Positions 1,070 through 27,493 of a stretch of 34,479 bases of DNA are shown here, piece by piece. A model generated the notes under the pieces. It had not been told where the DNA came from, did no database searches, and was given only the letters and a program-made list of their open reading frames with translations. The position numbers were made by a program, and so were the translations under genes. Each line of letters opens with the position of its first letter. Position 1 is the stretch's first letter. Source of the stretch: Thermotogota bacterium (GTDB taxonomy: Bacteria; Thermotogota; Thermotogae; Petrotogales; Kosmotogaceae); the NCBI GenBank assembly GCA_003643975.1, contig QNAR01000001.1, forward strand, positions 1 through 34,479, in the 5' to 3' direction.

Positions 1070-1115
1070 TCAGTATCTCTCCCTTCTCAGGTCTGAAGAG
1101 TAATATGAGAATTCA

Positions 1116-1145: not shown

Positions 1146-1151
1146 CAAGTA

Positions 1152-2087
1152 TTAACGATAACCTTCTTTTACACTGTTTTCTACAGGGCCAACATTGTCC
1201 TTTGTAATAATGAAAGGTCCTGTTAGCACATCACCAATGGGAGAGAGACCATATTTTTTGTAGAAGTAAAGAAATTCCACTGCAAGATATCCCTGCAAGT
1301 ATTGCTGCTGATCAACAGTATATAGAACTTTTCCTTCTTCTATCCACTTGAGCATTTCTTCGGTAAGGTCAAAACCGCTTACCTTGACCTTTCCTTCAAG
1401 CCCCATGTCTTCTACCACGGTTACAGCTGGGAGTGTTCCTATAGGGCCAAGGGTGAAAATCATGTCGGTATCAGGATGTTTTCGCAGGTAACCTTCAAGA
1501 ACCGATACGCCTTTTGAAGGATCTACGGTAATATTCAATTTTTCGACAGGAATTCCTTTTGGACTGAGAGCATCCATTATACCCTTTGCCCTCATTTCCA
1601 TTCCAGCATGCCCTACTTCGTGAATTGCTATAACTGCGCGTTTAGGTGTGAATTGTGAGAGAACATACATTGCGCCATTGTATCCACCAAGATATTCGTT
1701 GTTTCCGATGTAAGCGATGTATGGAATTTTATCCAACCCTGTTCTTGGGTCTGGAACATTGATGGCGATGACCGGAATTCCGGAAGAGATCGCCCTTTTG
1801 AGAGGCTCTTCCACGGCGTTAACATCGGTTATTGTGACTATTAACCCATCTGGCTTCGCAGCAATGGCCGCGTTCAAATTATTAACGAAGGTTTGAAGAG
1901 AATACTTCACTGGTCCAAGATACGTTGCGTTCACTCCATATTTCTCAGCTGCATCATTCATGCCTTTCATCACGATTCCCCAGAATGGATCAGCAGGCCC
2001 TCCATGGGAAACCAGGTAGAAATTCATCTCTGCAAGTAAAAGACTCGAGCTAAGAACAACCAAAAGTATTACAAGAACTTTTTTCAT
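1152..2087 (-). CDS. Sugar ABC transporter substrate-binding protein (Peripla_BP_4 type), probably inositol-binding
   Basis: Signal peptide MKKVLVILLVVLSSSLLLA with no lipobox Cys. HGGPADPFW, GIPVIAIN and VDQQQYLQGY motifs. SD GGGAGG. Confidence 0.9.
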   Translation of the reverse strand: MKKVLVILLVVLSSSLLLAEMNFYLVSHGGPADPFWGIVMKGMNDAAEKYGVNATYLGPVKYSLQTFVNNLNAAIAAKPDGLIVTITDVNAVEEPLKRAISSGIPVIAINVPDPRTGLDKIPYIAYIGNNEYLGGYNGAMYVLSQFTPKRAVIAIHEVGHAGMEMRAKGIMDALSPKGIPVEKLNITVDPSKGVSVLEGYLRKHPDTDMIFTLGPIGTLPAVTVVEDMGLEGKVKVSGFDLTEEMLKWIEEGKVLYTVDQQQYLQGYLAVEFLYFYKKYGLSPIGDVLTGPFIITKDNVGPVENSVKEGYR

Positions 2088-2177
2088 GCAATACCCTCCC
2101 TTTCAAGTAATTTTGGAATTTACAAGAAAAATTCCCCGTTTTTTCCCTGTTTTCTATCCCCCCTTTCTTTCTGGTAT

Positions 2178-3407: not shown

Positions 3408-3420
3408 TTCAATCCCTCCA

Positions 3421-4434
3421 TCAAATCAATTCGGCAATCTTCACCGAACGATTTTCCTTAGCTGAAATGTCAGCAGCTCTGGCAACGAGGATTGAATAGT
3501 ATCCAGCCTCTACGCCAGCAGAAACGTCCTTATCTTCAAGAACGGATTCAACAAAAGCCCGAATTTCGTTGGCAAAAGACTGCATGTAGCGTTGAGGAAA
3601 GTAGTACAAAGGCTTATCGCTACAAACCGCAGCTTCTGTGCTCACAATGACGTTGGTTTCTCTATCGTTCTCGGCCCGTGCGCTACCTTTCGAACCAAAT
3701 ACTTCTACTCTTTGGTCGTATCCATAGGTGGTTTTTCTACTGACATCAATCGCACAAATCGCACCGTTTTCCATCTTCAATATGGCATAGGCGGTATCGA
3801 AATCTCCCGCTTCGCCTATTCTGGGGTCAAGGAGTACACTGCCACCAGCGTAAACTTCGACTACTTCTGACCCCGTTAAAAACCTTGCAGTGTCAAACTC
3901 ATGGATCATGAAATCGAAGAAGATGCCACCGGATTTCTTCACGAATTCTATATCGGGCAGGTGGGGATCTCTTGAAGTCGTTCTGATCAAATGAATTTCA
4001 CCGAGTTCGCCAGAATCTATAAAGTCTTTGACCTTTCTAAAGTTATGATCAAAGCGCCTATTAAAGGCAATCTGGATTTTAACGCCGGTGTTTTTTAGGT
4101 TTTTATAAAGCTCTCTGGCCGTTTCCAGATTATGTGCAAGGGGCTTTTCCATAAAAACATGTTTTTTTGCTTTAACAGCCGCTTTTAACATTTCACCATG
4201 TAATGTAGTTGGAGATGCGATAACCACGGCGTCTATCTCGGGATCTTCTAAAACATCCTGCCAATTGGCCGTGATTTCGAAGTCGCCCAAACGTTCAGCC
4301 CACTTCTTTGTTTCATCAACCCGCGGATCTGCCAGTGTTTTGACCTTGGCTTCCGGCACGTGCTGAATGAGGTTAGTTGTGTGAATCCTTCCCAATCTTC
4401 CCAACCCTATGACACCTATCCTCAAAGTTTCCAC
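3421..4434 (-). CDS. iolG: Inositol 2-dehydrogenase family (Gfo/Idh/MocA), second paralog
   Basis: GVIGLGRLG, EKPLA, FNRRFD, SRDP, DFMIHEFD and YGYDQRVEVFG motifs. Start moved from TTG 4455 (ORF track) to GTG 4434, which has SD AGGAGA upstream. Confidence 0.85.
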   Translation of the reverse strand: METLRIGVIGLGRLGRIHTTNLIQHVPEAKVKTLADPRVDETKKWAERLGDFEITANWQDVLEDPEIDAVVIASPTTLHGEMLKAAVKAKKHVFMEKPLAHNLETARELYKNLKNTGVKIQIAFNRRFDHNFRKVKDFIDSGELGEIHLIRTTSRDPHLPDIEFVKKSGGIFFDFMIHEFDTARFLTGSEVVEVYAGGSVLLDPRIGEAGDFDTAYAILKMENGAICAIDVSRKTTYGYDQRVEVFGSKGSARAENDRETNVIVSTEAAVCSDKPLYYFPQRYMQSFANEIRAFVESVLEDKDVSAGVEAGYYSILVARAADISAKENRSVKIAELI

Positions 4435-4451
4435 CGAATCATCTCCTGTTC

Positions 4452-5468
4452 TCAAAGAACTTCTTCGAGTTTTACTGGCCTATTCTCTTTAGCCGAGATC
4501 GTGGCAGCTTTGGCAATGACTATGGCCATCAACCCATCATGACCCGACACCGGAACTTCCTTATCTTCAATCAAGCTATCTATAAAATCTTTCATTTCAT
4601 CCTCAAATGATTGCATATATCTTTCAAGGAAGAAGTAAAGTGGCTTGTCACTTGCAACACACTCTTCATTACTGAGTATGACGTTTGTTTCGGTGTCATT
4701 TTCAGCCCGGGCACTCCCTTTTGAACCGAAGACTTCCACACGTTGGTCATAGCCATAGGCTGCTTTTCTGCTGTTGTCTATTATGCAGGTTGCTCCACTT
4801 CTGAATTTCAAAACAGATACAGCGGTATCGTAATCACCGGCATCACCAATTGTGGGATCTATGAGTACGCTTCCAAAGGCACAAACTTCAACGACTTCGT
4901 CTCCGGCAAGGTAACGAGCCATATCGAAATCGTGAATAGTCATATCCATGAAAATGCCACCAGAAACCTTTACGTATTCAATGGGTGGTGGGGCGGGGTC
5001 TCGTGATGTGATATTCACTATATGTACTTCTCCGATTTTTTCATCTTCAACAAGCTTTCTTACTTTCCTGAAATTATGGTCAAAGCGTCTGTTGAAACCT
5101 ATCTGAAGTTTTACCCCTTCTTCTGTTACAACTTCAAGCGCTTTTCTCGTTTTTTCCAGGTCCATATCGATGGGCTTTTCACAGAAAATATCTTTCTTCG
5201 CCCTTGCTGATGCGATTATCAGATCAGCATGAGTGTTGGTAGGCGAGCAGATGATCACCGCATCCACTTCGGGATTATCAATCACATCTTCAGGATCGGT
5301 CACAACGTTGTTTATTCCAACGGAATCAGCCCAGGCTTTGGTTTCTTCAAATCTCGGGTCACAAATTGTTATAACTTCCGCTCTTTCGACCTTTTGAACG
5401 AGATTTTTTGCGTGAATCCTTCCTATCCTGCCAGCTCCTATTACACCAACCTTGATTTTTTTATCCAT
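4452..5468 (-). CDS. iolG: myo-Inositol 2-dehydrogenase
   Basis: GVIGAGRIG, CEKPID, GFNRRFD, SRDP, DMTIHDFD and YGYDQRVE motifs. Adjacent to iolE. ATG 5468 preferred over GTG 5477 because GGAGTG is well spaced from it. Confidence 0.92.
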   Translation of the reverse strand: MDKKIKVGVIGAGRIGRIHAKNLVQKVERAEVITICDPRFEETKAWADSVGINNVVTDPEDVIDNPEVDAVIICSPTNTHADLIIASARAKKDIFCEKPIDMDLEKTRKALEVVTEEGVKLQIGFNRRFDHNFRKVRKLVEDEKIGEVHIVNITSRDPAPPPIEYVKVSGGIFMDMTIHDFDMARYLAGDEVVEVCAFGSVLIDPTIGDAGDYDTAVSVLKFRSGATCIIDNSRKAAYGYDQRVEVFGSKGSARAENDTETNVILSNEECVASDKPLYFFLERYMQSFEDEMKDFIDSLIEDKEVPVSGHDGLMAIVIAKAATISAKENRPVKLEEVL

Positions 5469-5480
5469 CTTCTTCACTCC

Positions 5481-6380
5481 CTAAAATCCGAGAATCTCTT
5501 TCAGATAGGCACGGGCTTTTTTCGCATATTCGAGAGGAGGGGCTATTTTTGGATCCTGTTCCGCTTCAACGACAATCCAGCCTTTGTAATTAATGTCATC
5601 AAGTGCTTTTGCTATCGGCTTGAAATCGATCATGCCATCTCCTGGAACGGTAAAAACGCCCTGCTTAACGGAATATAAAAAGCTCCAATCCTCCTGGAAA
5701 GAGCGCTTCATGACGTCCTCACGCAGATCTTTGAAATGAACGTGCTTTATACGTGAGCCGTAATCTTTTATCATTTGTAAAGGGTCTCCGCCTGCAAAAA
5801 CCAGGTGACCGGTATCGAGAAGCAAATAAACCAGATCAGGGTCAGTGCTTTCCATAAGCCTTCTGACTTCTTCATAGGTCTGAACCCCTGTTCCCATGTG
5901 GTGATGGAACACTATTTTCATATCTTTCTCAGCTGCAAGTTTTCCAAGCTCATGGAGCCCTTTGACGAGTTTCCCCCAATCTTCATCGCTGAAAATTGGC
6001 TTTTGGCTGTGCAATGGTGTATTCATAAGGCCTTGAACGCTTTTTCCGCTTTCGGATACGACTATCACTTTTGCACCCATAGCGTGAAGAAAATCCCTGT
6101 GCTTGATAAAAGCAGCAATAGTTTCTTCGGGATCTTTGGTGGTAAAGTAACTACTGAACCATGCACTTGCTATCTGCAATCCTCTGGGCTCAAGGGCCTT
6201 TTTAAGAACCATGGGATCACGTGGAAATTTGTTGCCAACTTCGCTACCTTCAAAGCCTGCCTCAGCCATTTCATCGATACACTGTTCAAAGGGAATATCA
6301 CCGCCAAGTTCAGGCATGTCATCATTGGTCCAAGCAATTGGAGCAATTGCCAATTTGATGTCTTCTCTTCTGATACCCAT
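5481..6380 (-). CDS. iolE: myo-Inosose-2 (2-keto-myo-inositol) dehydratase
   Basis: APIAWTNDDMPELG N-terminus plus HHHMGT, LLDTGH, HVHFKD, FTVPGDG and WIVVEAEQDP motifs. Confidence 0.95.
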   Translation of the reverse strand: MGIRREDIKLAIAPIAWTNDDMPELGGDIPFEQCIDEMAEAGFEGSEVGNKFPRDPMVLKKALEPRGLQIASAWFSSYFTTKDPEETIAAFIKHRDFLHAMGAKVIVVSESGKSVQGLMNTPLHSQKPIFSDEDWGKLVKGLHELGKLAAEKDMKIVFHHHMGTGVQTYEEVRRLMESTDPDLVYLLLDTGHLVFAGGDPLQMIKDYGSRIKHVHFKDLREDVMKRSFQEDWSFLYSVKQGVFTVPGDGMIDFKPIAKALDDINYKGWIVVEAEQDPKIAPPLEYAKKARAYLKEILGF

Positions 6381-6394
6381 CTAATTCCCTCCAG

Positions 6395-8278
6395 TCACCA
6401 CTTGCGGGCGTGTTTTTTCATATATTCGCTGTCTTCCATATATGCTTTTTTCACTGAATCGCTTTCGGATACCTCTGCAACGCCAACTCGCCACCATGAT
6501 TCATATCCACCGGACTGTGTGCCGGGTAAGACTTTCACGTCTATGAGGACGCTTGTGGATTCTTTTCTCGCTTCTTCCAAAGCTTTTCGAAGTTCATTTT
6601 CGTTACGCGCTGTGTAGGCTTTTGCACCTAAGCTCTTCGCTATTCCAGCAAAGTCTATCTGTATATAGTCATCATCGAGTTTTCCTGTTTCTTTCGAACG
6701 ATACCTCAGCTCATTGCCAAATCCTTTTGCGCTTCCATGGGATTTTTGAAGGCTGTTTATGCTCTGGAATCCACCGTTGTCGAGTATAATGACGTTTATC
6801 TTCATTCGTTCCTGCAAACTGGTAAGAAACTCAGAATGAAGCATAAGGAAACTCCCGTCACTCAAAAGGGCGTAGGCTTCCTTTTCAGGTTCGGCCATTT
6901 TCACGCCGAAAGTACCTGAAACTTCATAGCCCATACAGGAAAAACCGTATTCCATGTGATATGACTTGATACCTTTGCATCGCCATAGCCTGTGTAAATC
7001 CCCCGGAAGGCTACCAGCGGCTGCTACAAAAACGTCATTTTCAGTTGCGAAATCATTTATTATGCCAAGCGCTGTGGTTTGTGGGAGCCCTTTTTCAGAT
7101 TCCAGGTGATAAAGCCTGTCCACTTCCCTGTCCCATTCTTCTTTAAGTGTTTTTAGCTCTTCTTTTGAATAATTCGACCTATATCCTTCCTTCTTCAAAC
7201 CTTCCATCAGGACTTCAAGACCGAGCATGGCATCTGCGTTGAGGTGTTCGGCATCCATCTTCAGACCATCGAAATTATTGACATTTATGCTCAGGATTTT
7301 CACATTGGGGTTCTGAAAAGCGGTTTTTGAAGCTGTTGGGAAATCCATAAGCCTTGTACCAACTGCGATTATTAAATCCGCCTCCTTGGCGAGTTTGTTG
7401 GCAGCAAGGGTCCCTGTGGTGCCAACTCCACCCATGTTGAGCGGGTGATCCCACAGCATCGCTCCTTTTCCAGCCTGCGTGAAGGAAACAGGAATGTTAA
7501 AAGCTTCAGCAAATTCCCGTAAGGTATCCACTGCTTGAGAATAATGAACACCACCGCCAGCGATTATCAGCGGCTTTTTCTTAGTCTTAATGAGCCTTAG
7601 TGCTCTCACAAGAGCGCTCTCTGATGGTGGGCGCCTATCTATATGGTGTACTCTTTTCTCAAAGAATTCCACTGGATAATCATAGGCTTCACCCTGCACA
7701 TCTTGTGGAAGGGCAAGGGTAACAGCTCCTGTTTCTGCGGGGTCGGTGAGAACCCTCATAGCGTTTAGCGCTGCAGTAATTAGCTGTTCAGGTCTTTCTA
7801 TTTTGTCCCAGTATTTGCTCACAGCTTTGAAAGCGTCATTAGCCGTGATTTTTGGATTGTAAGGCATTTCTATTTGCTGAAGCACCGGGTCAGGCTGCCT
7901 ATCGGCAAAGATATCTCCCGGGAGCAAAAGCACAGGAATTCTGTTTACAGTTGCAGTAGCAGCACCTGTCACCATATTGAGTGCTCCGGGACCTATCGAA
8001 CTTGTACAGGCAAAGATTTCAAGCCTGTTTTTCTGTTTGGCGAAAGCAGTAGCAGCGTGAACTATCCCCTGCTCATTGTGTCCCTGATAAAATTTAAGAG
8101 AGAGGTCTTTCATGTTTTCAAGGCCTTCGCCAATGCCAAGGAGGTTGCCGTGGCCAAAAATCCCATATACTCCTTTGACAAATTTGTGTTCTTCCCCATC
8201 AAATTCGACATACTGGGCATCAAGGAATTTCAACAAAGCTTGAGCAGTAGTTAAGCGTATTGTTTTCAAATCATTCAC
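6395..8278 (-). CDS. iolD: 3D-(3,5/4)-trihydroxycyclohexane-1,2-dione acylhydrolase (ThDP-dependent, ring opening)
   Basis: RLTTAQAL, GIFGHGN, TSSIGPG, PDPVLQQ, AAGSLPGDLHRLW, YHMEYGFSCMGYE and C-terminal SWWRVGVAEVS motifs. Confidence 0.96.
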   Translation of the reverse strand: MNDLKTIRLTTAQALLKFLDAQYVEFDGEEHKFVKGVYGIFGHGNLLGIGEGLENMKDLSLKFYQGHNEQGIVHAATAFAKQKNRLEIFACTSSIGPGALNMVTGAATATVNRIPVLLLPGDIFADRQPDPVLQQIEMPYNPKITANDAFKAVSKYWDKIERPEQLITAALNAMRVLTDPAETGAVTLALPQDVQGEAYDYPVEFFEKRVHHIDRRPPSESALVRALRLIKTKKKPLIIAGGGVHYSQAVDTLREFAEAFNIPVSFTQAGKGAMLWDHPLNMGGVGTTGTLAANKLAKEADLIIAVGTRLMDFPTASKTAFQNPNVKILSINVNNFDGLKMDAEHLNADAMLGLEVLMEGLKKEGYRSNYSKEELKTLKEEWDREVDRLYHLESEKGLPQTTALGIINDFATENDVFVAAAGSLPGDLHRLWRCKGIKSYHMEYGFSCMGYEVSGTFGVKMAEPEKEAYALLSDGSFLMLHSEFLTSLQERMKINVIILDNGGFQSINSLQKSHGSAKGFGNELRYRSKETGKLDDDYIQIDFAGIAKSLGAKAYTARNENELRKALEEARKESTSVLIDVKVLPGTQSGGYESWWRVGVAEVSESDSVKKAYMEDSEYMKKHARKW

Positions 8279-9065
8279 CTCCGAAAGGCCATATGGAAGC
8301 GTCTTTTTCCGTTACCCACAGATGTTCCAGTTCAAAGGTAGGCACTGTATAAGGGTTACCATCAAGATGCCTTATGGCCCATATGTAATACATGGCGTAT
8401 CCCGGTGCACTTACCTGTGGATGAGAGAGATCATCAAGGATTTTCAGCGTATCACCATGCCTGATCTTATAAACATCCTCGCCCAACATCCCAAAGCCAA
8501 AGCCCTGCTCGGGAAAGAAGCGATAATGGTATATTTCAGGCTGAGGATGGTGGTGTGGCGGATAACTTGACCACTTGCCAGGGTAATTTACCACCTCTCC
8601 AAGCACCAGTTTGGCATCTGGGGCGTTGGTTACATCAAAAATAGTACGCACGATCCTCGTAGAAGTTTCGCGCATTGTGCCTTCGCCTCTGTGTTCTGAC
8701 CTGGTATCGTTCCCCTGATAAAGCCGACATTCAAAAACCGCATCATTTGTAGTTGCAAAAATTGCGATTTCTGCATTGGTTTTGGCCTCGATTTTTACCT
8801 CAGTGCTCATTGGAACATGCAGGCATACAGGTTCATTTTCCAAAAGAGAGTCTCTTTTTACCAGTTCTACCCTTCCATTCCATTCGAAAGATATTTCCCC
8901 TTTCATCAGCAGGAAAGCTCTTTCCTTTCCGGGCTGGCTTTTGTAGGTTTGTTGGCCCTTCAACAAAAGTAGACCAAAATCCATCATTGTATCTTTCTCT
9001 GATTCACCCTCCCGGGTTATTTCGTTAAAACCTTGTATGCGTTTCTTCGCTTTTAGCAAATACAT
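8271..9065 (-). CDS. iolB: 5-Deoxy-D-glucuronate isomerase
   Basis: LVLGEVVNYPGKWSSYPPHHH, EIYHYRF and HPQVSAPGYAMYYIW motifs. 8-nt overlap with iolD. Confidence 0.93.
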   Translation of the reverse strand: MYLLKAKKRIQGFNEITREGESEKDTMMDFGLLLLKGQQTYKSQPGKERAFLLMKGEISFEWNGRVELVKRDSLLENEPVCLHVPMSTEVKIEAKTNAEIAIFATTNDAVFECRLYQGNDTRSEHRGEGTMRETSTRIVRTIFDVTNAPDAKLVLGEVVNYPGKWSSYPPHHHPQPEIYHYRFFPEQGFGFGMLGEDVYKIRHGDTLKILDDLSHPQVSAPGYAMYYIWAIRHLDGNPYTVPTFELEHLWVTEKDASIWPFGGE

Positions 9066-9088
9066 TGCTCATCTCCTCCAGATTTGCA

Positions 9089-10051
9089 TTATTTTCTTAA
9101 AAGGACATTTTTAACGCTGGCTGCTATATCCTGAGCTGTCATATTGAAGCGTTTCTTCAGGTAGTCAACATCTCCAACTTCGCCAAACAAATCTTTTACC
9201 CCCACTCTTTCAATGGGTACAGGGCACGTTTCAGCGACCACTTCGGCAACTGCAGAACCAAGGCCGTTATATATATTGTGGTTTTCGGCTGTCACAATTG
9301 CCCCGGTTTCAGATGCACATTTTTCAATGAGCTCTCTATCTATGGGTTTAATGGTAAAGATGTTAACTACTCTTGCATCAATGCCCTCACTTGCCAGCAA
9401 ATCAGCGGCATCAAGAGCTTCTGCCACCATGATTCCCGTGGCAATAATAGTGACATCTTTCCCTTCTCTGAGAACTATTCCTTTTCCAATCTCAAAACTT
9501 GAACCTTCTTCGAATACCCGTATTGTTGTTTTTCTCGAAATCCTCACGTAGAATGGTCCGTAAGAATAGGTTATGTCTTTTAGAAGGGCTTTCATCATTA
9601 CAGTATCAACAGGCTCTATAATCGTGATGGTAGGAATTCCCCTCACAAAGCCAATATCTTCCAAAGGCATATGAGTTCCACCGTTATATGCAGCGGTTAC
9701 TCCTGGATCTGTTGCCATCATCTTCACGTTTAGCTTGTTATAGGCTATGGAGATATATACCTGATCAAGAGCCCTTCTAGTGCTGAAACAAGCAAAGGTA
9801 TGAGTGAAGGGGATCTTGCCAGTGGCAGAAAGACCTGCGGCAATGCCCATCATATTGGCTTCCTGAACTCCCACGTTAATCGCTCTTTCAGGGAATTTTT
9901 CTAAAAATCTGTAAGTACCATTGGAATGCATCAAATCCGCATCGAGTACGATTATATTTGGATCACTCTTTGCAAACTCTATGAGCTGGTCGATATAGAC
10001 ATCTCTCATCATTACAGTGTCGGGTTTTCTCTTTTCAACGAGTTTGATCAT
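9089..10051 (-). CDS. Split transketolase, C-terminal (pyrimidine-binding + C-terminal domain) subunit
   Basis: VLDADL, NVGVQEANMMGIAAG, RALDQ, NGGTHM, TIKPID and AENH motifs. ATGA overlap with the N-subunit. Confidence 0.92.
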   Translation of the reverse strand: MIKLVEKRKPDTVMMRDVYIDQLIEFAKSDPNIIVLDADLMHSNGTYRFLEKFPERAINVGVQEANMMGIAAGLSATGKIPFTHTFACFSTRRALDQVYISIAYNKLNVKMMATDPGVTAAYNGGTHMPLEDIGFVRGIPTITIIEPVDTVMMKALLKDITYSYGPFYVRISRKTTIRVFEEGSSFEIGKGIVLREGKDVTIIATGIMVAEALDAADLLASEGIDARVVNIFTIKPIDRELIEKCASETGAIVTAENHNIYNGLGSAVAEVVAETCPVPIERVGVKDLFGEVGDVDYLKKRFNMTAQDIAASVKNVLLRK

Positions 10052-10902
10052 CTAAGATCCCTTTCTTTCTCTTCCCATTCTTTTTGTAACGCGCTTATGG
10101 CATCGTTGATCTGCTCCTCATTAAACTTCATATGGTGGTTCAGCTCTATGCCTTCTGCAAAAGTGCAGCCTTTTCCTTTTATTGTGTGTAAAACAATTAC
10201 AGAGCTTTTCCCTTTTGTTTCCTTTGCTCTTTGTATTGCTTCATGTATCTGCATGACATTATGCCCATCAACATCCTGAGCGTGCCAGCCAAATTCCTCC
10301 CATTTTTTCCTCAAATCCCCAAGTGGATTGATATTGTCAATGTATCCATCAAGCTGTTGCTTGTTGTAATCGATGAACACTATGAGGTTATCGAGTCCGG
10401 CATTTCCAGCGAATAATGCACCTTCCCAAACCTGTCCTTCCTGGCATTCTCCATCGCCTAAAAGAACATAAACATAGTTTTCCTTGTTGTCCATCTTATG
10501 CCCCAGGGCAATTCCTATACCCATAGAAATACCCTGTCCGAGGGAGCCTGTGGACATATCTATACCCGGGGTATGATTTCTGTCAGCATGACTCGGTAAA
10601 TCCGTTCCCCCTCGATTCAGCGTTTTCAACCATTCCATGGGGAAAAAACCCTTCAAAGCCAGCGTTGCATACAAAGAAGGGCCTGCATGACCCTTTGACA
10701 TCACAAACCAATCACGGTCTTCCCATTTTGGGTTCTTGGGATCGTATCTCATAACTTTGCCATAAAGCACTGCGAGCAGTTCAACAATTGACATCGCGCC
10801 ACCAATGTGGCCAAATCCGAGATATCCGAGCTCCTTCAAGGTTTCAATGCGAATTTTTGTTGCGAATATTTCCAGTTCTTTCATTTCGTTGTCTGTGAGC
10901 AT
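10048..10902 (-). CDS. Split transketolase, N-terminal ThDP-binding subunit
   Basis: GHIGG, DRDWFVMSKGH, STGSLGQG, the GDGE...N ThDP motif and TIKGKG. Confidence 0.93.
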   Translation of the reverse strand: MLTDNEMKELEIFATKIRIETLKELGYLGFGHIGGAMSIVELLAVLYGKVMRYDPKNPKWEDRDWFVMSKGHAGPSLYATLALKGFFPMEWLKTLNRGGTDLPSHADRNHTPGIDMSTGSLGQGISMGIGIALGHKMDNKENYVYVLLGDGECQEGQVWEGALFAGNAGLDNLIVFIDYNKQQLDGYIDNINPLGDLRKKWEEFGWHAQDVDGHNVMQIHEAIQRAKETKGKSSVIVLHTIKGKGCTFAEGIELNHHMKFNEEQINDAISALQKEWEEKERDLR

Positions 10903-10908
10903 CAGAGT

Positions 10909-12171
10909 TTATTCACCTCGCTTGATTTTAGGGAGTGTAGAAGCTCCAAGGGGAAATACGGCGTATTTTGCGTTCATCCCCTTTTCACCAAAAGCTTCTT
11001 TTACAGCTTCAGTAGGGTTATCAAAGCATCTTATGCCAACTAACTTTTCTTCTGCGAATTCTTTATTGGTAACCAGGAAAATTTCCGATGTTTTTAACAC
11101 GACTTTGGATATTGCAGCTGCTTTGTGGCCACCCAGGACAAAATTTTCTTTCAGGCCTTCAACCAGTTCCGTAGGCTTTTTTCCAGAGGTAATCCATTCT
11201 TTGAAAGTTTTACTTCCGTATTTCTCTGGACATTCGGCAAAAAGAATCATTCTACCACCGGGTTTCAAAACCCCGGCGCAGTTATCTATCGCCTTTTGCG
11301 CTTGATAGAGGTTGATATCCTTTGGATATCCTCCAGCGCTTACAATGACAATGTCAAGAGGCTCTTTAATGGGAACAAGCCCACTTTTTTCAAGGCGTTC
11401 AGCCAATATCCTGTGTGCCTTGATCCAATCACCAGAAGCAGCATCGATCACTCTATGATGTTCGCCCACAACCACGTTCAAGACGAAATCAATTCCCAGA
11501 AAACTCACACCCTCTTCGATATCCATGCGTACAGGATTGTCGTAAATAGAAGCCGCTTCAGCACCATCTTCCATCATGTGGCTGTGATTTTGTCTGATCG
11601 TTTTGGCAGAAGCGACACCGGGTAGAATGGCTTTGGCACCACCGGAAAATCCGGCAAAATAATGAAATTCCACGTTGCCAAGGCAAATTCTGAAATCAGC
11701 CTCAACAACAGGGCGAAAAAATTCTACTCTCGTCCCCCGGGTGGTTGTGCCCACATAAACCGTATTGTCCACGTCATGATTCAAAACTCTAATTCTTTCG
11801 TAGATACTTTTGCCAACCGCCTTTTGCAATTCATCTTCCGTCATCTTTCTGTGAAGGCCTAAGGCAATTACAATTGTTATATCCTCATCATTCACACCTG
11901 CTTTATTCAGCCTGTCAATGACATGAGGCAAAAGAACATCACTGGGGCATGGCCGGGTCAAATCGCTGGTCACTATCACCACTTTCTGTCCTGGCTTAAC
12001 TAGCTGTTCAACTCTTTCCGTGCCCACCGGATGATTTAAGGCTTTTTCAACAAGTGCATTTTCTGAATCGGTGATGGATTGCCGTTGGGGGTGATACTCA
12101 CCAACAAATCCTTTCTCAGGTAATTCAACTTTTACAGTCGATTCACCATATGGAAGTTCAAAATTGAGCAT
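10909..12171 (-). CDS. larA: LarA-family nickel-pincer-dependent 2-hydroxyacid racemase/epimerase (predicted malate racemase)
   Basis: SDLTRP, ALGLHR, NHD, FHYFAGFSGGAK, NHS, GGYPKDINLYQAQKA and GGHKA motifs. Family assignment is firm; the substrate is inferred from context. Confidence 0.88.
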   Translation of the reverse strand: MLNFELPYGESTVKVELPEKGFVGEYHPQRQSITDSENALVEKALNHPVGTERVEQLVKPGQKVVIVTSDLTRPCPSDVLLPHVIDRLNKAGVNDEDITIVIALGLHRKMTEDELQKAVGKSIYERIRVLNHDVDNTVYVGTTTRGTRVEFFRPVVEADFRICLGNVEFHYFAGFSGGAKAILPGVASAKTIRQNHSHMMEDGAEAASIYDNPVRMDIEEGVSFLGIDFVLNVVVGEHHRVIDAASGDWIKAHRILAERLEKSGLVPIKEPLDIVIVSAGGYPKDINLYQAQKAIDNCAGVLKPGGRMILFAECPEKYGSKTFKEWITSGKKPTELVEGLKENFVLGGHKAAAISKVVLKTSEIFLVTNKEFAEEKLVGIRCFDNPTEAVKEAFGEKGMNAKYAVFPLGASTLPKIKRGE

Positions 12172-13436
12172 TATTTTTCAACCTTCCTGTACGCCTTTTT
12201 CAGAGCCTTAATAAGAGGAAGCTCTTTGCCAGATAAGAAGCGTACCATAGCTCCTCCAGCAGTACATATATAGCCAAACTTCTTATTGGCATTTTCTACG
12301 AGCTTCTGCGCAGCGGAGACACTATCTCCGCCTCCGATAACGCTATAACCCGGAGCTTCAGCAATGGCATTCCATATCTCTCTTGTCCCCTTTTCAAAAA
12401 GCGGGTTTTCATACGCTCCAGCGGGCCCGTTTATAAAAATCGTTCCTGCTTTCATGATTTCACCCTTATACAGCTCTATGGTCTTTTCACCTATATCAAG
12501 GAAAAGAGCATTATCAATTGGAAGCTCGTTGATAGAGCATTCCACACGTTTTCCATCTTTTTCATATGCAAAGTCTACAGGATTGAGAAACCTGTCGCCA
12601 AAGCGAGCAAGATAATCTTTGGCAGGTTCAATGAAGGCATCGAGAGAACGATCGAAAATGAATTTTTCCTGCTGCTTGCCGACCGATCTTCCCATAGCCA
12701 TTTGCATGACTATTCCCGTCACACCACAGGTCAAGATTTTATCAGCAGTGCCATTTTCGAGGACCTGTTTCATCATTCCGAAAGCATCGGATATTTTCAA
12801 CCCTCCAAGAACAAAAACAGCGGGCTTTTCAGGGCTTTCCATCACTTTTGTTAATGCTGAAAGCTCTTTGAAGAGAAGCCTGCCTGCCGCCGTAGGCAAA
12901 AGCTCTTCGAAAGCGACCATGGAAGGTGAGTTCCTATGTGCTGCCGAAAAAGCGTCGTTTACATAGTAATCTGCAAGAGGGGCAAGATTACGAACTATGT
13001 AGGTATTCAACATCTCATGCGCTTCGAGCTTTACAGCGTTCTCAAAGGTTGAAACTTCTTCTGTTAGATATCTAACATTTCCCAGCAGTACCGCTTCGCC
13101 TGGCTTCAGGCTTTTCACCATTTCCTGCGCAGCCGGCCCGGCAACATCATCGATGTATTTCACGGGTTTTCCAAGCTTTTCTGACAACTTTTCAGCATGC
13201 TCAGCCATGGAAATGAGATTATGGTAATCGAGCGTATCTCCCTGATGTGCTAGTATAGCCAGCTTTGCCCCTTTTTCCATTAGTTCCCTGATTGTAGGTA
13301 TACTTTGATTTATTCTATTTTCATTGGCTATTTTTTTTGTTTTCGGATCGAGAGGGGAGTTGATATCAATCCTCAGGATAACTGTCTTATCATGGAAGTT
13401 AAAGTCATCGAGAGTATTTATCAAAATCTCTCGCAT
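12171..13436 (-). CDS. pgk: Phosphoglycerate kinase family, archaeal-like, with an altered substrate site
   Basis: RIDINSP, AHQGD (canonical H[LQ]GR), LLGNVRY, VNDAFSAAHR, LGGLK, NGPAG, GGGD and TAGGA motifs. 1-nt TAATG overlaps on both sides. Confidence 0.9.
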   Translation of the reverse strand: MREILINTLDDFNFHDKTVILRIDINSPLDPKTKKIANENRINQSIPTIRELMEKGAKLAILAHQGDTLDYHNLISMAEHAEKLSEKLGKPVKYIDDVAGPAAQEMVKSLKPGEAVLLGNVRYLTEEVSTFENAVKLEAHEMLNTYIVRNLAPLADYYVNDAFSAAHRNSPSMVAFEELLPTAAGRLLFKELSALTKVMESPEKPAVFVLGGLKISDAFGMMKQVLENGTADKILTCGVTGIVMQMAMGRSVGKQQEKFIFDRSLDAFIEPAKDYLARFGDRFLNPVDFAYEKDGKRVECSINELPIDNALFLDIGEKTIELYKGEIMKAGTIFINGPAGAYENPLFEKGTREIWNAIAEAPGYSVIGGGDSVSAAQKLVENANKKFGYICTAGGAMVRFLSGKELPLIKALKKAYRKVEK

Positions 13437-14458
13437 TACTTATGCCTCCCTATTTTTAGGTATTTGTTCGTAAGCCCAACGGCTTCCAGCCTATCCGCCT
13501 GCATTTCCATAGCGGCTCTGATACCATCAATCGTCTCGGGAATAACCACGGACTCTTGTGGAATATGCAGGGAATATATGAGGTGGTCTTCAAAAGGCGT
13601 AACTGTTTCTTCCCATATGGAAATTTCGTACATATCGCCGCGCGGATTTCCCAAATCACGTGCATAGCGGAATATGGAAGCGTTACCCAGAAAACCATCT
13701 TCTATTTTTACCAGCCTGATTCTTGGGTGTTCTCTGAATATCTCAATGGCCTCTTCTTTGGAAACTTTCTTTTTGGGTTTGGCAAAAACGGTGATGAAAT
13801 GACCATGGGTAACGGGAGTGTGCACCAAAACGCCGGTGGCCTTCACATGAGGCATTATGAGCATTAAGTCAACCGCTTGATGGTTAGGAACCGGATCAAC
13901 TTTCAGCGCATTAGTAAGACCTCTGTGGTAATCTCCCGGATCAGCAACACGCCTCACAATATGAATCATCGCGGATTCCACTCCAACAGCTCTATCTAAG
14001 CAATCTACAGAACGAATTAAACCAGTGGTATTGCATGAAGTAAGTTTCAAGAATTGTTTTCCTATACCTTTTTCATAATTTGCATATCCGTGAAAAAACA
14101 CATCGGCAACGCTTGTTTTTTCTCCACCCTGGAAAATAGCTTTTTTGCCGTATTTTTCGTAAAGGACTTTGTTTTTCGCACCTACGCCAGCATTGGTTGC
14201 ATCAAGAACTATATCCACTTTTTTAATCAGGTCTTCCAGATTTCCAGAAATAGGAATGCCAGCTTTTTCAACCTTTTCCCGGTTTTCCTCAACGGAAAGG
14301 TAAAAATCGTAGGGCATTCCCTTCTCTTTTAGAGCCCTAACGGCAAGCGTCGGAGCAACATCCGCTACACCAACAAGTTCCATGTCTTCTTGAAGTGCAA
14401 CTCCATCAGCGAGACGTTGGCCTATCACACCATAACCAACTACACCAACTTTTACCAT
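13436..14458 (-). CDS. gap: Type II (archaeal-class) glyceraldehyde-3-phosphate dehydrogenase homolog, first gene of the operon
   Basis: GYGVIGQRLAD, IFQGGEK, catalytic SCNTTGL, IVRRVADP, RDLGNPRGDMYE and QESVVIPETIDGIRA all match class II GAPDH. SD GGAGG. Confidence 0.9.
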   Translation of the reverse strand: MVKVGVVGYGVIGQRLADGVALQEDMELVGVADVAPTLAVRALKEKGMPYDFYLSVEENREKVEKAGIPISGNLEDLIKKVDIVLDATNAGVGAKNKVLYEKYGKKAIFQGGEKTSVADVFFHGYANYEKGIGKQFLKLTSCNTTGLIRSVDCLDRAVGVESAMIHIVRRVADPGDYHRGLTNALKVDPVPNHQAVDLMLIMPHVKATGVLVHTPVTHGHFITVFAKPKKKVSKEEAIEIFREHPRIRLVKIEDGFLGNASIFRYARDLGNPRGDMYEISIWEETVTPFEDHLIYSLHIPQESVVIPETIDGIRAAMEMQADRLEAVGLTNKYLKIGRHK

Positions 14459-22948: not shown

Positions 22949-22957
22949 TGTTAGAAT
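22949..22957 (+). promoter_or_regulatory. Extended -10 promoter (TG-n-TAGAAT) for the riboswitch leader
   Basis: TGTTAGAAT ends 6 nt before the first G of riboswitch P1 (22964). Confidence 0.6.
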
Positions 22958-22961
22958 ATTT

Positions 22962-23010
22962 ATGGATGATGGAGTCCGTCCTAATTGCCAAAAGGCTAAT
23001 GACTCCTACC
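22962..23010 (+). ncRNA. Fluoride riboswitch (crcB motif) aptamer
   Basis: GGATGATGGAGTCCGTCC-TAATT-GCC-AAAA-GGC-TAATGACTCCTAC. P1 22964-68/22977-81, conserved GATGGAGT, P2 GCC/GGC, conserved CTAATG, pseudoknot GGAGTC (22971-76) with GACTCC (23001-06), terminal CTAC. Confidence 0.92.
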
Positions 23011-23036
23011 TTTATGGGTAGGAGTTTTATTTTTTT
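23002..23036 (+). terminator. Riboswitch-controlled intrinsic terminator (expression platform)
   Basis: ACTCCTACC-TTTATG-GGTAGGAGT 9-bp stem followed by TTTATTTTTTT. The 5' arm is the pseudoknot strand of the aptamer. Confidence 0.9.
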
Positions 23037-23052
23037 CAGGCAGGCGGTGCAT

Positions 23053-23760
23053 TTGAAACACATTCCAAAGGAAAACAACCAGCTTTATTTTTTGCTTTTA
23101 GAATTTATTGAGAAGAAAAAAAGTAGCTGTCCCATTTGTCTTGCAACCGAGAAGAGCGTGATTGATTATTTTGATATATTACTCTATGAACGGGTTAATG
23201 ATCCAGAAACCCGAAGAGTCATTGACACTTCTATGGGGTTCTGCAGCAAACACACTGCTTTGCTTATGAGGATGGGAGACTCTTTTGGACAATCTATGAT
23301 ATACAGAAGTGTACTTACACATATTGCCAAAACATTGCCTTCACAGCTACCTCTAAAAAAAAGACGTATAATATTTCCCAAGGGCATAGATCACAAAAAC
23401 AGTTATAAAAATAAGTGTCCAGCTTGTGATTTTGAAAAGGAGTTTGAGGAGTTGTATCTCGATGAGTTTGTCTTGGGACTTGAAAAACCAGAATTCAGGA
23501 AATCCTTTGCCCAGTCCAGTGGCTTATGCATACCACATTTCATAAAGGCCATGGAAATATGCCAAAAAAGTGATACAGCCGATTTCTTGCTTGATACTCA
23601 ACTCAAGGTTATTGACAATTTAATAGCTGAACTGGATGAATTCATTCTCAAATTTGACTACAGGTTTTCAAACCAAAGAATGGGAAAAGAAAAAAATGCG
23701 TGGAAAAGGGCTGCGAGGCTTCTTGCCAGTAGGCATATTTTGGATGATTTAGATCAATGA
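23053..23760 (+). CDS. DUF6062-like protein with duplicated CxxC...CxxH metal-binding motifs
   Basis: CPIC...VNDP..R......GFCSKH and CPAC...GLCIPH, plus KFDYR and W.RA. The ORF-track start 22888 runs through the riboswitch, so TTG 23053 (SD AGGCGGTG) is the likely start. Family name is from memory. Confidence 0.75.
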   Translation: MKHIPKENNQLYFLLLEFIEKKKSSCPICLATEKSVIDYFDILLYERVNDPETRRVIDTSMGFCSKHTALLMRMGDSFGQSMIYRSVLTHIAKTLPSQLPLKKRRIIFPKGIDHKNSYKNKCPACDFEKEFEELYLDEFVLGLEKPEFRKSFAQSSGLCIPHFIKAMEICQKSDTADFLLDTQLKVIDNLIAELDEFILKFDYRFSNQRMGKEKNAWKRAARLLASRHILDDLDQ

Positions 23761-23784
23761 ATAACTTCCTGGGAGGTATAAAAG

Positions 23785-24726
23785 ATGAAAGTAAAAGAGT
23801 TTGGTGAAAAGGTGCTGAAAAATATATCCAAAGTGATAATCGGAAAAGACAGAGTCATACGAAAACTGCTGGCAGTTATGATCAGTGAGGGGCATGTATT
23901 GCTCAATGATGTGCCGGGTGTGGGTAAAACAATGCTTGCAAGGAGTTTAGCACTTTCATTGGGACTGAAATTCAAGCGTATTCAATGCACCCCTGACCTT
24001 TTACCAAGCGATGTGACCGGATTGAATATCCTGGATATGAAAACCAATGAGTTCGTCTTTCAACAGGGCCCTGTCTTTACCGACATACTCCTCGCAGATG
24101 AAGTGAACAGAACAACCCCCAGAACACAGTCAGCTTTGCTCGAGGCCATGGCGGAAAAACAGGTTACCGTCGACGGAAAAACTCAAGCGTTGAGCGATCT
24201 GTTCTTTGTAATAGCAACTCAGAACCCCGTGGAATTTGAAGGCACCTTCCCTCTTCCGGAAGCTCAGCTAGACAGATTTGCCATATGTATGACATTGGGG
24301 TATCCAGAGAGGGAGCAGGAAATCCTGATGCTCAATAACATGAAGGAAGAGCATCCCATCGTTGAACTTAAACCGGTATCCAATGCCGAGGAACTGAGGA
24401 AAATCAGAAAAAGTGTTAGAGAGATACATTTAGATAATTCTATTCTTTCTTATATCACCGACCTGGTATGGAGCACTCGCAAACACCCTGATCTTGCACT
24501 GGGTTCAAGTCCTCGTGGTTCCATCGCCCTGATGAACCTCTCCAGGGGACTCGCGGCTTTAAATGGAAGGGACTTTGTGATTCCAGACGATGTAAAGGAA
24601 ATAGCTGTTGAGGTTCTTGCACATAGGGTTATCTTAAAACCTGAAGCGCGTCTCATGCGCAAAACCAGAGAAATGGTTATAGAGGAAATTCTTGACAGCA
24701 CAGAGGTACCTATCAAGAATGGCTAA
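23785..24726 (+). CDS. moxR: MoxR-family AAA+ ATPase
   Basis: GHVLLNDVPGVGKT, RIQCTPDLLPSD, LADEVNR, ATQNP, LPEAQLDRF, SPRG and LAHR motifs. Confidence 0.95.
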   Translation: MKVKEFGEKVLKNISKVIIGKDRVIRKLLAVMISEGHVLLNDVPGVGKTMLARSLALSLGLKFKRIQCTPDLLPSDVTGLNILDMKTNEFVFQQGPVFTDILLADEVNRTTPRTQSALLEAMAEKQVTVDGKTQALSDLFFVIATQNPVEFEGTFPLPEAQLDRFAICMTLGYPEREQEILMLNNMKEEHPIVELKPVSNAEELRKIRKSVREIHLDNSILSYITDLVWSTRKHPDLALGSSPRGSIALMNLSRGLAALNGRDFVIPDDVKEIAVEVLAHRVILKPEARLMRKTREMVIEEILDSTEVPIKNG

Positions 24727-26002
24727 GCTGCAAGTGAAGTCTTTCAGGTCGCGCAAAGGCCCATTGTGTCTCCTGACTGTGCTAGGGCTTATCTGGCTTG
24801 TCTTTCAAATCAATGCTTTCTCATTGACAATAGCTGTTCTATCTGCCACGTTATGGTTAGAATATTTTATTACAGGATACTTTTTAAGAAAGACTACCAT
24901 CGAGAGAACGTTAAGTCAGAACAGAATTTTCACCGATCAGGCCCTGGAATTGGGTTACACTATAGAGAACCCTTTTCCGGGAGACCTCGAAATAGAGTTC
25001 GTTACGCTCATAGAAAAGGCAACCAGCACTTCAGGCATGAAAGCCCGGCGACTTTTGCTAAAGCCCAGGCAATCATTGTCAATCAGTACAGAACTTGTTT
25101 TTGCGCTGCGCGGAAGAAAGGACGTTTCCAGCTGTTCAATTGCATACAAAGATCCACTGGGCTTTTTCAAACACTGGGCGGTCTTCTCAAATCCGGAAGA
25201 AGTGCTTGTCCTCCCAAGGCTCATGGAATTTGAAACCTTCCCTTTGATGCTTAGAGAGCTCCTTCCCGGTTCCAAAAGCGATTTTCAGTTGCTTGAAGAC
25301 CCCACTTATCTTAAAGGGGTTAGGCGATACGCTTCTGACCCCATGAATCGAATACATTGGAAAATATCCGCAAAAATGAGAGAACTCTACACAAAGGAAT
25401 TCAACTTCACTGCCATCAGTAAAACCATGCTTTACTTAGATCTCAACCTCACAAAAGAGGTCTTTGCACGAGCCGTGTGGTCGCAGATGAGAAGAAATTA
25501 TGAAGAACAGGCAGTGTTAGCGGCATCTTCTCTAATTCGTTGGAGTCATGAACGGGGAAATAGAATCGAACTGGTTGTTGTGGGGGCTGACATTCTCAAA
25601 ACTGAATACAGGAAAAAAAGTTGGGTTGAAACAGTGGAACTCCTTGCACTAGCCAAAGGTACTGATGATGGCATTGAACTTTCAAACATTCTTTTAGAGG
25701 ATATAGAAAAGTTAACACCGTCGACTACATTGGTGATTTTCTCGCTTTATCTTACTGATTCCATCTTGCCTGTTCTATTGAAAGCCCGGTCCAAGTGCGC
25801 CAGAGTATTGGTATTGGTTATGCCTTATGGTTTCAGGGATCCGCGTTATAAAGCGGGTAGATCTTTCGAGCTGTTGCCACAGGATATGAAGCGCCTAAGA
25901 GAAAAAGCGGCCTTGCTCGAAAAAGAACAGATACTCGTAAGAATCGTCAGAGATAACCAGTCTTTGCAGGAGGTGGCAATGGAAATTGAAGAAGTTAAAT
26001 GA
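24719..26002 (+). CDS. DUF58 domain protein (MoxR-associated) with N-terminal TM helices
   Basis: RG...DPLGFF, VLVLP and GVRRY.SDPMNRIHWKISAK...LYTKEF motifs. ATG 24719 overlapping the moxR stop preferred over TTG 24692. Confidence 0.88.
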   Translation: MAKLQVKSFRSRKGPLCLLTVLGLIWLVFQINAFSLTIAVLSATLWLEYFITGYFLRKTTIERTLSQNRIFTDQALELGYTIENPFPGDLEIEFVTLIEKATSTSGMKARRLLLKPRQSLSISTELVFALRGRKDVSSCSIAYKDPLGFFKHWAVFSNPEEVLVLPRLMEFETFPLMLRELLPGSKSDFQLLEDPTYLKGVRRYASDPMNRIHWKISAKMRELYTKEFNFTAISKTMLYLDLNLTKEVFARAVWSQMRRNYEEQAVLAASSLIRWSHERGNRIELVVVGADILKTEYRKKSWVETVELLALAKGTDDGIELSNILLEDIEKLTPSTTLVIFSLYLTDSILPVLLKARSKCARVLVLVMPYGFRDPRYKAGRSFELLPQDMKRLREKAALLEKEQILVRIVRDNQSLQEVAMEIEEVK

Positions 26003-27386
26003 TTTACTCTCATTTTTCTACGCCTCTGCAGCAGTTATTTACGTTTCTGCCAGGGATTTTGGCCTGATAGGTACTTCTATTGTTCTTGCTGTGGTATTGT
26101 TCATGCTTTATTCCACAAGAATCAAGGCTGGCTGCTCGGCTTTTGTTATGTTGCCTTTTCTGCTTTTTTTCAGCATCTTTGTGTCCATGGGAACCCGGAG
26201 ACTCGATTTTGGAAGTTCGTTGTACTTCTTCATAGTATATGCGGCAATTTTGCTCTCCCTTTCAGCGGAAATCTGGACCGCTATTACAGGGCTTGTGCTC
26301 TTTGGAATTAGCCTTTCCCTGGGTGGATTCAGTAGTGCAGATGCCGTGATTTTTGTCTTTATAGTACTGCTCTGGTTCTTCACAAGAAATTTGAAAATTC
26401 CCATCATTTTTCTGACGTTGTTCCCACTATTGGCCATCATAATACTTTTATCAGCCAGTGGGATTGAACTGAGTATCACGGACCAATTCATGCCCAAAAA
26501 CCAATCAGCAAGTGAAACACCATCTGCAACTGCATTTGAAGAGTCTGTACCAGCGGAACCATTCTCGAATAATCCGATGGACTTAAACCCATCACCTTCC
26601 AGAACAGATAAAACCGTACCGGGTAAATTGTTGTTTATTCCTGATTTTTTATTGAATTTTCTTCTTGTAATTGGAGCTATCTCCATGCTGTTCATGATTG
26701 TCAAAGTAAAGGCTTTCAGCGGCTACCTTAAAATCCTCCTTCTGGGGACAGCGATTTTTGCCATTGTAATAGCTGGTTCTAGCTCGATATTTATGTTCCT
26801 TAACCAGACTGAAAACAAACCAACCACTTCGGGAACGGGTATAGGTCCCCAATTTTCTGGAAAAGTCGGTAGTACCATTCCGGGCGTTATTTCTGAGACA
26901 GCATCTTCGACAGCTCCAGCAAAGATAGTCAACGGTTTTTTTAGTATGAGTATTGAATGGATACTCTTGATAGCCGCTTCCAGCATAGTTGTTTTTACAG
27001 CTTTAGCCTTGATTAAGCTGATGAAAAAGGTTGCTAACGAAGCGCCGGAGGAAAAAGCAAAAACCAAGGAAATACCGGAAGAAATCGAGCTCTTGCCGCT
27101 GGATAAGTTACCCGATTTACGCATTTCAAGGTCTTATATACTCGCTGCCTATTGGTGGCTGAGAAGAAAATATTTTTCTACTTTGCACCACCTCACTCCT
27201 TATGAACTTCTCACTCTGGAAAAGGGAGAGACTACCTTTGAAGAGCTAACTGAAATTTACGTAAGAACAAAATACGCAGGTAGGTCACCTTCAAAAACTG
27301 AATGCGAAAAGTTCCACCAGCTTCTGGTTATTCTCGCAAAAAGATATGAGTCTCCCGAGGAGCTTAACGCATATAACCATAGATAG
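25986..27386 (+). CDS. Polytopic membrane protein with C-terminal DUF4129-like domain
   Basis: Multiple TM segments, two S/T/P-rich loops, and C-terminal AYWW...HLTPYE...LTEIYVRTKYA. Usual third gene of MoxR-DUF58 operons. Confidence 0.7.
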   Translation: MKKLNDLLSFFYASAAVIYVSARDFGLIGTSIVLAVVLFMLYSTRIKAGCSAFVMLPFLLFFSIFVSMGTRRLDFGSSLYFFIVYAAILLSLSAEIWTAITGLVLFGISLSLGGFSSADAVIFVFIVLLWFFTRNLKIPIIFLTLFPLLAIIILLSASGIELSITDQFMPKNQSASETPSATAFEESVPAEPFSNNPMDLNPSPSRTDKTVPGKLLFIPDFLLNFLLVIGAISMLFMIVKVKAFSGYLKILLLGTAIFAIVIAGSSSIFMFLNQTENKPTTSGTGIGPQFSGKVGSTIPGVISETASSTAPAKIVNGFFSMSIEWILLIAASSIVVFTALALIKLMKKVANEAPEEKAKTKEIPEEIELLPLDKLPDLRISRSYILAAYWWLRRKYFSTLHHLTPYELLTLEKGETTFEELTEIYVRTKYAGRSPSKTECEKFHQLLVILAKRYESPEELNAYNHR

Positions 27387-27469: not shown

Positions 27470-27493
27470 GTAAACGTTTACGTAAACGTTTAC
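27470..27493. promoter_or_regulatory. Tandem LacI-type (RbsR) operator
   Basis: GTAAACGTTTAC occurs twice back to back. Each copy is a perfect palindrome with central CG, directly before the GGAGGT SD of the LacI gene. Confidence 0.85.

Follow-up and report, generated by a model that had tools for sequence, protein, structure and literature searches.

The stretch of DNA analysed here (hereafter the window) comprises 34,479 nucleotides (nt), positions 1 to 34,479 of the forward strand of contig QNAR01000001.1, from a Thermotogota bacterium of the family Kosmotogaceae (assembly GCA_003643975.1). It carries on the plus strand a fluoride riboswitch of the crcB motif (Rfam family RF01734) followed by four closely spaced genes, which encode a protein of the DUF6062 family, a MoxR-type AAA+ ATPase, a DUF58-like protein and a membrane protein; the last three will be called the moxR trio. 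As an RNA it is typical of RF01734; what appears to be new is the gene content behind it.

In an Rfam scan the aptamer (22956-23015) reached 42.5 bits where the gathering score is 34, covering model positions 1-64 at an E of 1.1e-8. It is the sole Rfam match in the window and the sole RF01734 match in the genome, whose assembly is 83.5% complete. As read from the sequence, the P1 helix pairs GGAUG (22964-68) with CGUCC (22977-81), the short second stem pairs GCC (22987-89) with GGC (22994-96), and a pseudoknot of six pairs joins GGAGUC (22971-76) to GACUCC (23001-06). GATG (22968-71) and ATG (22999-23001) correspond to the GAUG and AUG ligand segments of the fluoride aptamer. Among 32 aligned sequences, which are related so that no probability is attached to the figures, 97.7% of the cells in the helices are paired and two-sided changes occur in 9 of the 12 pairs; this alignment (A3) and the model R1 include one false match, L170, which did not score. 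A22999 and U23007 occupy the positions of the linchpin, A40-U48 in the fluoride aptamer (PMC11077080). Variant aptamers, mostly from family f7, were also seen at L069-L071, L078-L081, L120 and L121: they carry GGAGGAGU or GGUGGAGU instead of GAUGGAGU, with CCAAUGAC or CCGAUGAC on the 3' side, and some of them fall below the Rfam cut-off with pseudoknot and terminator retained.

Behind the aptamer, an intrinsic terminator (23001-23037), which constitutes the OFF state, is made of an 11-bp stem (23001-23026) and a U tract with the tail UUAUUUUUUU. Its hairpin has a folding energy of -17.2 kcal/mol, and the leader as a whole folds with a z of -3.43, a value equalled in 1 of 200 shuffles. The complete 3' strand of the pseudoknot is contained in the terminator stem, so aptamer and terminator are mutually exclusive. 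This is the layout of a transcriptional ON switch, as described for terminators that overlap the pseudoknot (PMC11077080). Upstream, a motif scan and the homologous leaders point to an extended -10 promoter candidate, TGTTAGAAT (22949-22957), located 6 nt before P1; transcription would begin near G22964, the first base of P1.

The probable start of the DUF6062 gene (23053-23760) is a TTG codon at 23053, which lies 15-16 nt past the U tract and aligns with the N-terminus of the homolog from genome G048. Between its stop and the start of moxR (23785-24726) there are 24 nt, which contain a ribosome site; moxR then overlaps the gene of the DUF58-like protein (24719-26002) by 8 nt, and the latter overlaps the membrane protein gene (25986-27386) by 17 nt. 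At the DUF6062-moxR junction a terminator scan revealed no stem followed by a T run; its two weak matches both fall inside coding sequence, in the last two genes. An earlier reading of this DNA from its letters alone (the sequence-only reading) had claimed a complete crcB-motif aptamer, a mutually exclusive terminator, a spacing of about 16 nt to DUF6062, a 24-nt gap to moxR without terminator and overlapping genes thereafter, and all of this was recovered, including the match to the Rfam crcB model. Its promoter fared less evenly: the element TGnTAnnnT recurs at the equivalent place in 11 of 30 homologous leaders (a figure without shuffle control), but the promoter scan itself is at chance level, with 13 sites compared to 13.6 in shuffles.

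Given this architecture, fluoride-dependent read-through into DUF6062 is very probable, and a single transcript would probably extend to the last gene. If, on the contrary, the switch were leaky or dead, the genes would be expressed regardless of fluoride. The modest score of the aptamer and its second stem of 3 pairs could be taken in this sense, and the C-G at the top pair of the pseudoknot speaks against a working switch: a wobble at this pair favours switching, and a Thermotoga petrophila switch without the wobble barely switched with the E. coli polymerase (PMC11077080). However, P1 still pairs where A-U replaces G-C, neither terminator nor promoter is damaged, and the G048 leader is nearly identical to that of the window. 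We regard a leaky or dead switch as most improbable and retain a fluoride-responsive one.

Predicted products of the four genes

The DUF6062 protein (235 amino acids) is soluble and belongs clearly to its family, with 99.8 bits for PF19538 against a cut-off of 27. It contains two CxxC...CxxH repeats; their residues C26, C29, C64, H67, C122, C125, C159 and H162, each shared by no fewer than 132 of 134 homologs, likely form two zinc sites. A set of polar residues (R54, K200, D202, Y203, R204 and E213) is also conserved, and the patch made of YExVND-R54, K200-x-DYR, E213 and W217 likely binds a ligand or a client protein. The AlphaFold2 model is all-helical, with a mean confidence (predicted local distance difference test, pLDDT) of 89.6. 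Fold searches against solved structures gave at best an E of 0.44 with Foldseek and a Z of 4.9 with VIA, values that say nothing on the novelty of the fold. The automatic name 'ABC transporter substrate-binding protein' was discarded, as it misfits a soluble all-helical Cys/His protein. The family is large, with 5,162 cluster representatives at E <= 0.001, and all the Atlas clusters correspond to PF19538. NCBIfam has no family for this protein, nor for the DUF58-like and membrane proteins.

Two peculiarities of DUF6062 genes were noticed on this occasion. Tandem proteins with two DUF6062 domains (P0005, P0008, P0014, P0019 and P0021) exist beside adjacent gene pairs (L124, L129 and L134), which suggests that DUF6062 works as a dimer. 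At L190:5587-7860, a single frame of 757 amino acids encodes a DUF6062 domain together with a complete enolase; this may be a true fusion or a stop lost in one assembly.

The MoxR protein (313 amino acids) is the single match of its type in the genome. It scored 211 bits for AAA_3 and contains AAA_lid_2, its Walker motifs are intact (P44, G45, G47, K48 and T49, then D105 and E106, are invariant), and its best relative in the PDB is 2r44 (E 1.7e-105). The next protein (427 amino acids) scored 22.4 bits for PF01882, under the cut-off of 23.4, and was filed as DUF58-like; its homolog at L078 passes the same model with 25.3 bits. The AlphaFold2 model (pLDDT 83) predicts an N-terminal membrane hairpin, an immunoglobulin (Ig)-like domain and a vWA fold, and Foldseek matched the predicted fold to NorD, Rea1-MIDAS and BatB with E from about 5e-5 to 2e-4. 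The membrane protein (466 amino acids) has about eight hydrophobic segments and a conserved C-terminal tail. This tail is called here DUF4129-like, since it reached 15.1 bits for PF13559, and 20.8 for the best of 7 homologs in the class, against a cut-off of 24.8. In an alignment of 18 homologs the invariant positions are all in the soluble tail except Met1 and none lies in the membrane segments, so this protein fits better as an anchor than as a channel. By hydropathy, two of the three genes of the trio encode membrane proteins.

Distribution of the switch, DUF6062 and the moxR trio

We surveyed 151 genomes of the class to which the window belongs, with 32 RNA candidates scored per genome; these genomes are related and the counts are not independent. 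This class is likely Thermotogae, the closest protein relative being assigned by its source to Kosmotoga sp. RF01734 was found in 80 of them and DUF6062 in 76. The switch precedes 22 of 80 DUF6062 places by at most 300 nt, and 9 others follow it on the same strand at up to 10 kb. Three families, with 17 genomes in all (count from coordinates; 9 were mapped), share the order of the window, in which the switch is followed by DUF6062 and moxR. Several layouts were mapped in the class: the switch leads DUF6062 and the trio, DUF6062 alone, the trio and then DUF6062, or a hydrogenase-4-like operon ending in DUF6062. This last layout is that of family f7, where DUF6062 is the last gene of a switch-led operon resembling that of a group 4 hydrogenase.

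The link extends beyond the class. At the best 80 of 229 outside DUF6062 loci (mostly from Chloroflexota, with three labelled Thermotogae), a custom covariance model, for the building of which six of these loci were used, found the switch at 28, within 300 nt upstream at 21 and within 5 kb upstream at 7. Rfam alone passes 16 of 19 selected outside loci, the six model-building loci included. An even sample of 150 genomes from the Anaerolineae class around L147, which partly overlaps the previous sample, contains DUF6062 in 69 genomes and the switch in 49. Among the 69 carriers, 23 have the switch upstream of DUF6062, at no more than 300 nt in 16 and at up to 5 kb in the other 7. Where the two are close, they share a strand with the switch upstream in 30 of 31 pairs. 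Around DUF6062 in these two samples one finds crcB, enolase, MutS-like pairs, Na+/H+ antiporters, P-type ATPases and MoxR trios, mostly known members of the fluoride regulon according to PMC11139923 and PMC2864571. Judged from these gene orders, the DUF6062-switch link is beyond chance, and the question of how often DUF6062 follows the switch, raised by the sequence-only reading, is answered by strong links repeated in several phyla. DUF6062 is probably a protein in its own right, soluble and with two zinc sites, that accompanies many fluoride genes.

Some other genes of these samples deserve mention. The DUF6062 copies of L178, L186 and L169, labelled Clostridia, group with copies from Aerophobota, and the class around L178 yielded just 8 genomes, which were kept out of the counts; the label is likely unreliable. 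Genes at L161:4384-4977, L239:1727-2164, L241:4908-5375 and L158:4353-4877 recur in switch-led operons of Chloroflexota and represent two small families without Pfam or NCBIfam match in the tested members as well as one zinc-ribbon plus HEAT-repeat protein. Finally, many switches of the class lead pairs of proteins with MutS_V as their sole domain (L104:1365-4441, L105-L111, L114, L115, L119 and L122). One such switch-led protein matches the model of the KamC reactivase ATPase with an E of 1e-19, far below the cut-off, which gives a hint only; the function of these proteins may be to reactivate enzymes and not to act in repair.

The trio has its own connections to fluoride genes. Of the 16 genomes of family f7, 15 have the switch 28-41 nt ahead of moxR and no DUF6062 there (in the sixteenth, moxR starts at the contig end); the switch directly precedes moxR also in G090, in G005 and in genomes of the Anaerolineae class. 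This repeated placement argues that fluoride control of the trio was selected for on its own. Likewise, all 7 genomes that represent genus g12 have moxR and crcB no more than about 4 kb apart, and G076 has crcB, DUF190, moxR, DUF58 and the membrane gene in this order on one strand. In five Anaerolineae-class genomes chosen for their switch matches, 3 of 18 MoxR paralogs are switch-led and all three belong to one subclade. They and the MoxRs from the class of the window do not form a single clade (approximately unbiased (AU) test, p 0.0014, or 0.015 with a sister pair), so the idea of one fluoride-dedicated MoxR clade across phyla was rejected and two recruitments are likely. As DUF6062 and MoxR are each found behind the switch without the other, DUF6062 is not an obligate MoxR subunit either. 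The sequence-only reading had proposed an uncharacterised fluoride-response system; an undescribed regulon role is indeed supported for the DUF6062 type studied here and for MoxR-DUF58-membrane trios, but as separable modules and not as a fixed machine.

A possible defence without export

We propose that the four genes are fluoride-induced and that their products constitute a non-export defence in which MoxR remodels fluoride-poisoned proteins at the membrane, a combined reading for which we see the balance as even; that the operon has some role in fluoride tolerance can be held with fair assurance. In this mechanism, fluoride would lock the pseudoknot, the terminator could not form and one transcript would cover the four genes. 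A MoxR hexamer would then act via the vWA fold of the DUF58-like protein, as in NorQ/NorD and in CbbQ/CbbO, which serves as an activase. Held at the membrane by its two partners, MoxR would pry apart or reassemble the poisoned proteins, with basal export provided by the unlinked crcB described below. The known MoxR/vWA pairs serve the maturation or remodelling of dedicated complexes (PMC3893208), and enolase and phosphoryl-transfer enzymes are inhibited by fluoride (PMC11139923); together these points favour ATP-driven release or reassembly near the membrane. As to the mode of action, the reactivation or reassembly of enzymes or membrane complexes blocked by Mg-fluoride is put forward tentatively, and the rescue of metal-fluoride-inhibited enzymes, given as an example in the sequence-only reading, likewise stays a conjecture.

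Several observations weigh against this proposal. In the class, 49 of the 80 DUF6062 places have no link to the switch, and no RF01734 appeared when 14 such loci were rescanned with Rfam. Neither a switch nor a fluoride gene was seen at any of 80 redundant loci from the Clostridia-type DUF6062 branch, which rules out that the whole family is fluoride-linked and restricts the first functional clue for this Cys/His family, announced in the sequence-only reading, to the DUF6062 type studied here. The gene moxR is present in 104 of the 151 genomes of the class and switch-led in 34 (count from coordinates), and none of 20 further moxR loci, taken from genomes without an adjacent match, had a switch match. 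DUF6062 precedes the trio without any switch in G093 and G096, both complete or near-complete. G049 and G050, of the same genus as the window and with moxR genes 88% and 86% identical to its own, keep the trio, with neither switch nor DUF6062 there. Finally, an intact metal ion-dependent adhesion site (MIDAS) reads DxSxS, and that of the DUF58-like protein is degenerate (D241-L-N243-L-T, with N243 invariant in 17 sequences).

The two sister species bear directly on the extent of fluoride control. If the switch governed DUF6062 alone, a cassette made of both would have landed before a housekeeping moxR trio endowed with its own promoter, and it is exactly this cassette that is absent from G049 and G050, which keep the flanking major facilitator superfamily (MFS) gene with 82 and 122 nt between it and moxR. 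The moxR of the window is sister to those of G049 and G050 in the tree. The closest grouping of the window's DUF6062 is with the copy of G048, and both fall outside the main clade of the class (AU test, p 0.0014, with quick trees and a group named after the tree had been seen; one of the two quick DUF6062 trees left out about half of the unlinked loci). A second DUF6062 of the genome to which the window belongs, partial and located at a contig start (C156:16-465) so that the assembly lacks its upstream DNA, is sister to the G049 copy within the main clade. These trees are compatible both with a cassette regained from a G048-like donor and with a cassette lost twice. Two promoter matches inside DUF6062, at chance level, would also suit a separate moxR promoter. 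Nevertheless, the 24-nt gap has a ribosome site and no terminator, and the switch stands directly before moxR in family f7, G090, G005 and the Anaerolineae class. Control of DUF6062 alone is improbable in our eyes, and we keep to fluoride induction of all four genes.

The relation of the operon to export was the next element to weigh. The four operon proteins contain no CRCB or CLC domain, so the earlier description of a fluoride switch without exporter holds for the operon; the genome as such is not devoid of one, since a full crcB (PF02537, 92.4 bits) lies unlinked on contig C63, followed by a DUF190-like gene and with no riboswitch there. No CLC was found in this genome (83.5% complete). 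Exporters without a switch are the norm, about 15% of Flucs being switch-led, and two exporters present in over 85% of surveyed genomes explain most fluoride resistance, as reported in PMC11139923. Across the class, 49 of 151 genomes showed a crcB. Among the 31 with a switch-linked DUF6062 it is present in 4, compared to 44 of the 120 others, a contrast weakened by kinship and by the incompleteness of genomes. The window's genome is among the four. Of these 31 genomes, 18 have a CLC and 10 have neither crcB nor CLC. In the 8 CLC homologs that were read among the 18, the three CLC-F signatures defined in PMC11139923 are absent. The rarity of crcB makes the genes behind the switch direct candidates for coping without export, which bears on the engineering of defluorinating strains.

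The same figures could be explained by a new fluoride exporter encoded by the last gene and assembled by MoxR and the DUF58-like protein: crcB is missing in 27 of the 31 linked genomes compared to 76 of the 120 others, and the CLC homologs read do not look like CLC-F. But the membrane segments are devoid of invariant residues in 18 homologs, the window's genome and three other linked genomes do possess crcB, and absence of crcB is common across a class with many incomplete genomes. We deem a new exporter very unlikely and prefer the anchor of a non-export defence for this protein.

The main rival accepts a fluoride-induced operon and assigns to the trio a general maintenance of the envelope and membrane proteins instead of the freeing of blocked enzymes. 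It is consistent with the two membrane proteins of the trio and with the frequency of trios without switch, with the importance for membrane integrity of RL3499, an MRP-type protein of Rhizobium (PMC3893208), and with the changes that fluoride causes in cell wall and morphology (PMC11139923). Conversely, the company of crcB, enolase and MutS-like pairs hints at a more specific role, and only one MoxR subclade per phylum is switch-led. Envelope maintenance is in our opinion unlikely, and remodelling of fluoride-poisoned proteins remains the preferred reading. In its boldest form, which we present as doubtful, DUF6062 and the membrane-anchored MoxR/vWA pair would form an exporter-independent 'fluoride activase', recruited at least twice (in Thermotogae and Chloroflexota), that frees enzymes or complexes trapped by magnesium-fluoride with the help of ATP and is sufficient without Fluc or CLC-F. 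If this were true, MoxR-DUF58-DUF4129 operons would gain a signal and a class of clients for the first time. More generally, the switch supplies an inducing signal and a testable phenotype for DUF6062, with its more than 5,000 clusters, and for a widespread type of MoxR operon.

Two other features of the window were recorded. On the minus strand, 92-14458 contains a catabolic cluster, likely for inositol use. It encodes a glyceraldehyde-3-phosphate dehydrogenase with DapB_N and Gp_dh_C domains, whose look we take to be archaeal-type, pgk, a LarA-like protein, a split transketolase, an IolB-like protein, a thiamine pyrophosphate enzyme, a TIM barrel, two Gfo/Idh/MocA proteins, a malic enzyme and parts of a sugar ATP-binding cassette (ABC) transporter. 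At 27470-27493, the palindrome GTAAACGTTTAC is present in two tandem copies before a LacI regulator and a ribose-type ABC operon, and is operator-like.

Comparison with known systems

A literature search found no paper naming DUF6062 and, among the papers listed, none linking a fluoride switch to MoxR, DUF58 or DUF6062 (in the one paper where both terms occur they are brought up separately), although supplements may list these genes, above all that of Baker 2012, which reportedly lists switch-associated genes. In the supplements of PMC2864571 that were searched, where no per-gene context table was seen, MoxR, COG0714 and COG1721 are absent, and the DUF6062-MoxR gene content is not among the switch targets in the available parts of PMC11139923, PMC2864571 and PMC7266159. 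The known targets of RF01734 include crcB/Fluc, CLC-F, enolase, Na+/H+ antiporters, formate hydrogen lyase and mutS-like genes. Relatives of the window share several of these targets, namely the MutS-like pairs, the antiporters and the hydrogenase-4-like operon, and the leader of the window has the same aptamer, pseudoknot and overlapping terminator as the known ON switches. A precedent in arrangement is TK0513 of Thermococcus kodakarensis, where a fluoride switch precedes a non-crcB gene and crcB has its own start site (PMC4247193); there, unlike in the window, crcB is adjacent.

As to the proteins, the window resembles NorQ/NorD, RavA/ViaA, CbbQ/CbbO and the MRP subfamily, in that an AAA_3 ATPase adjoins a partner with a predicted vWA fold. 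It differs from these MoxR/vWA pairs by fluoride control, undescribed for the known pairs in the parts of the literature examined, and also by a degenerate MIDAS, by a partner with a membrane hairpin and an Ig-like domain and by a third gene encoding a multi-pass membrane protein.

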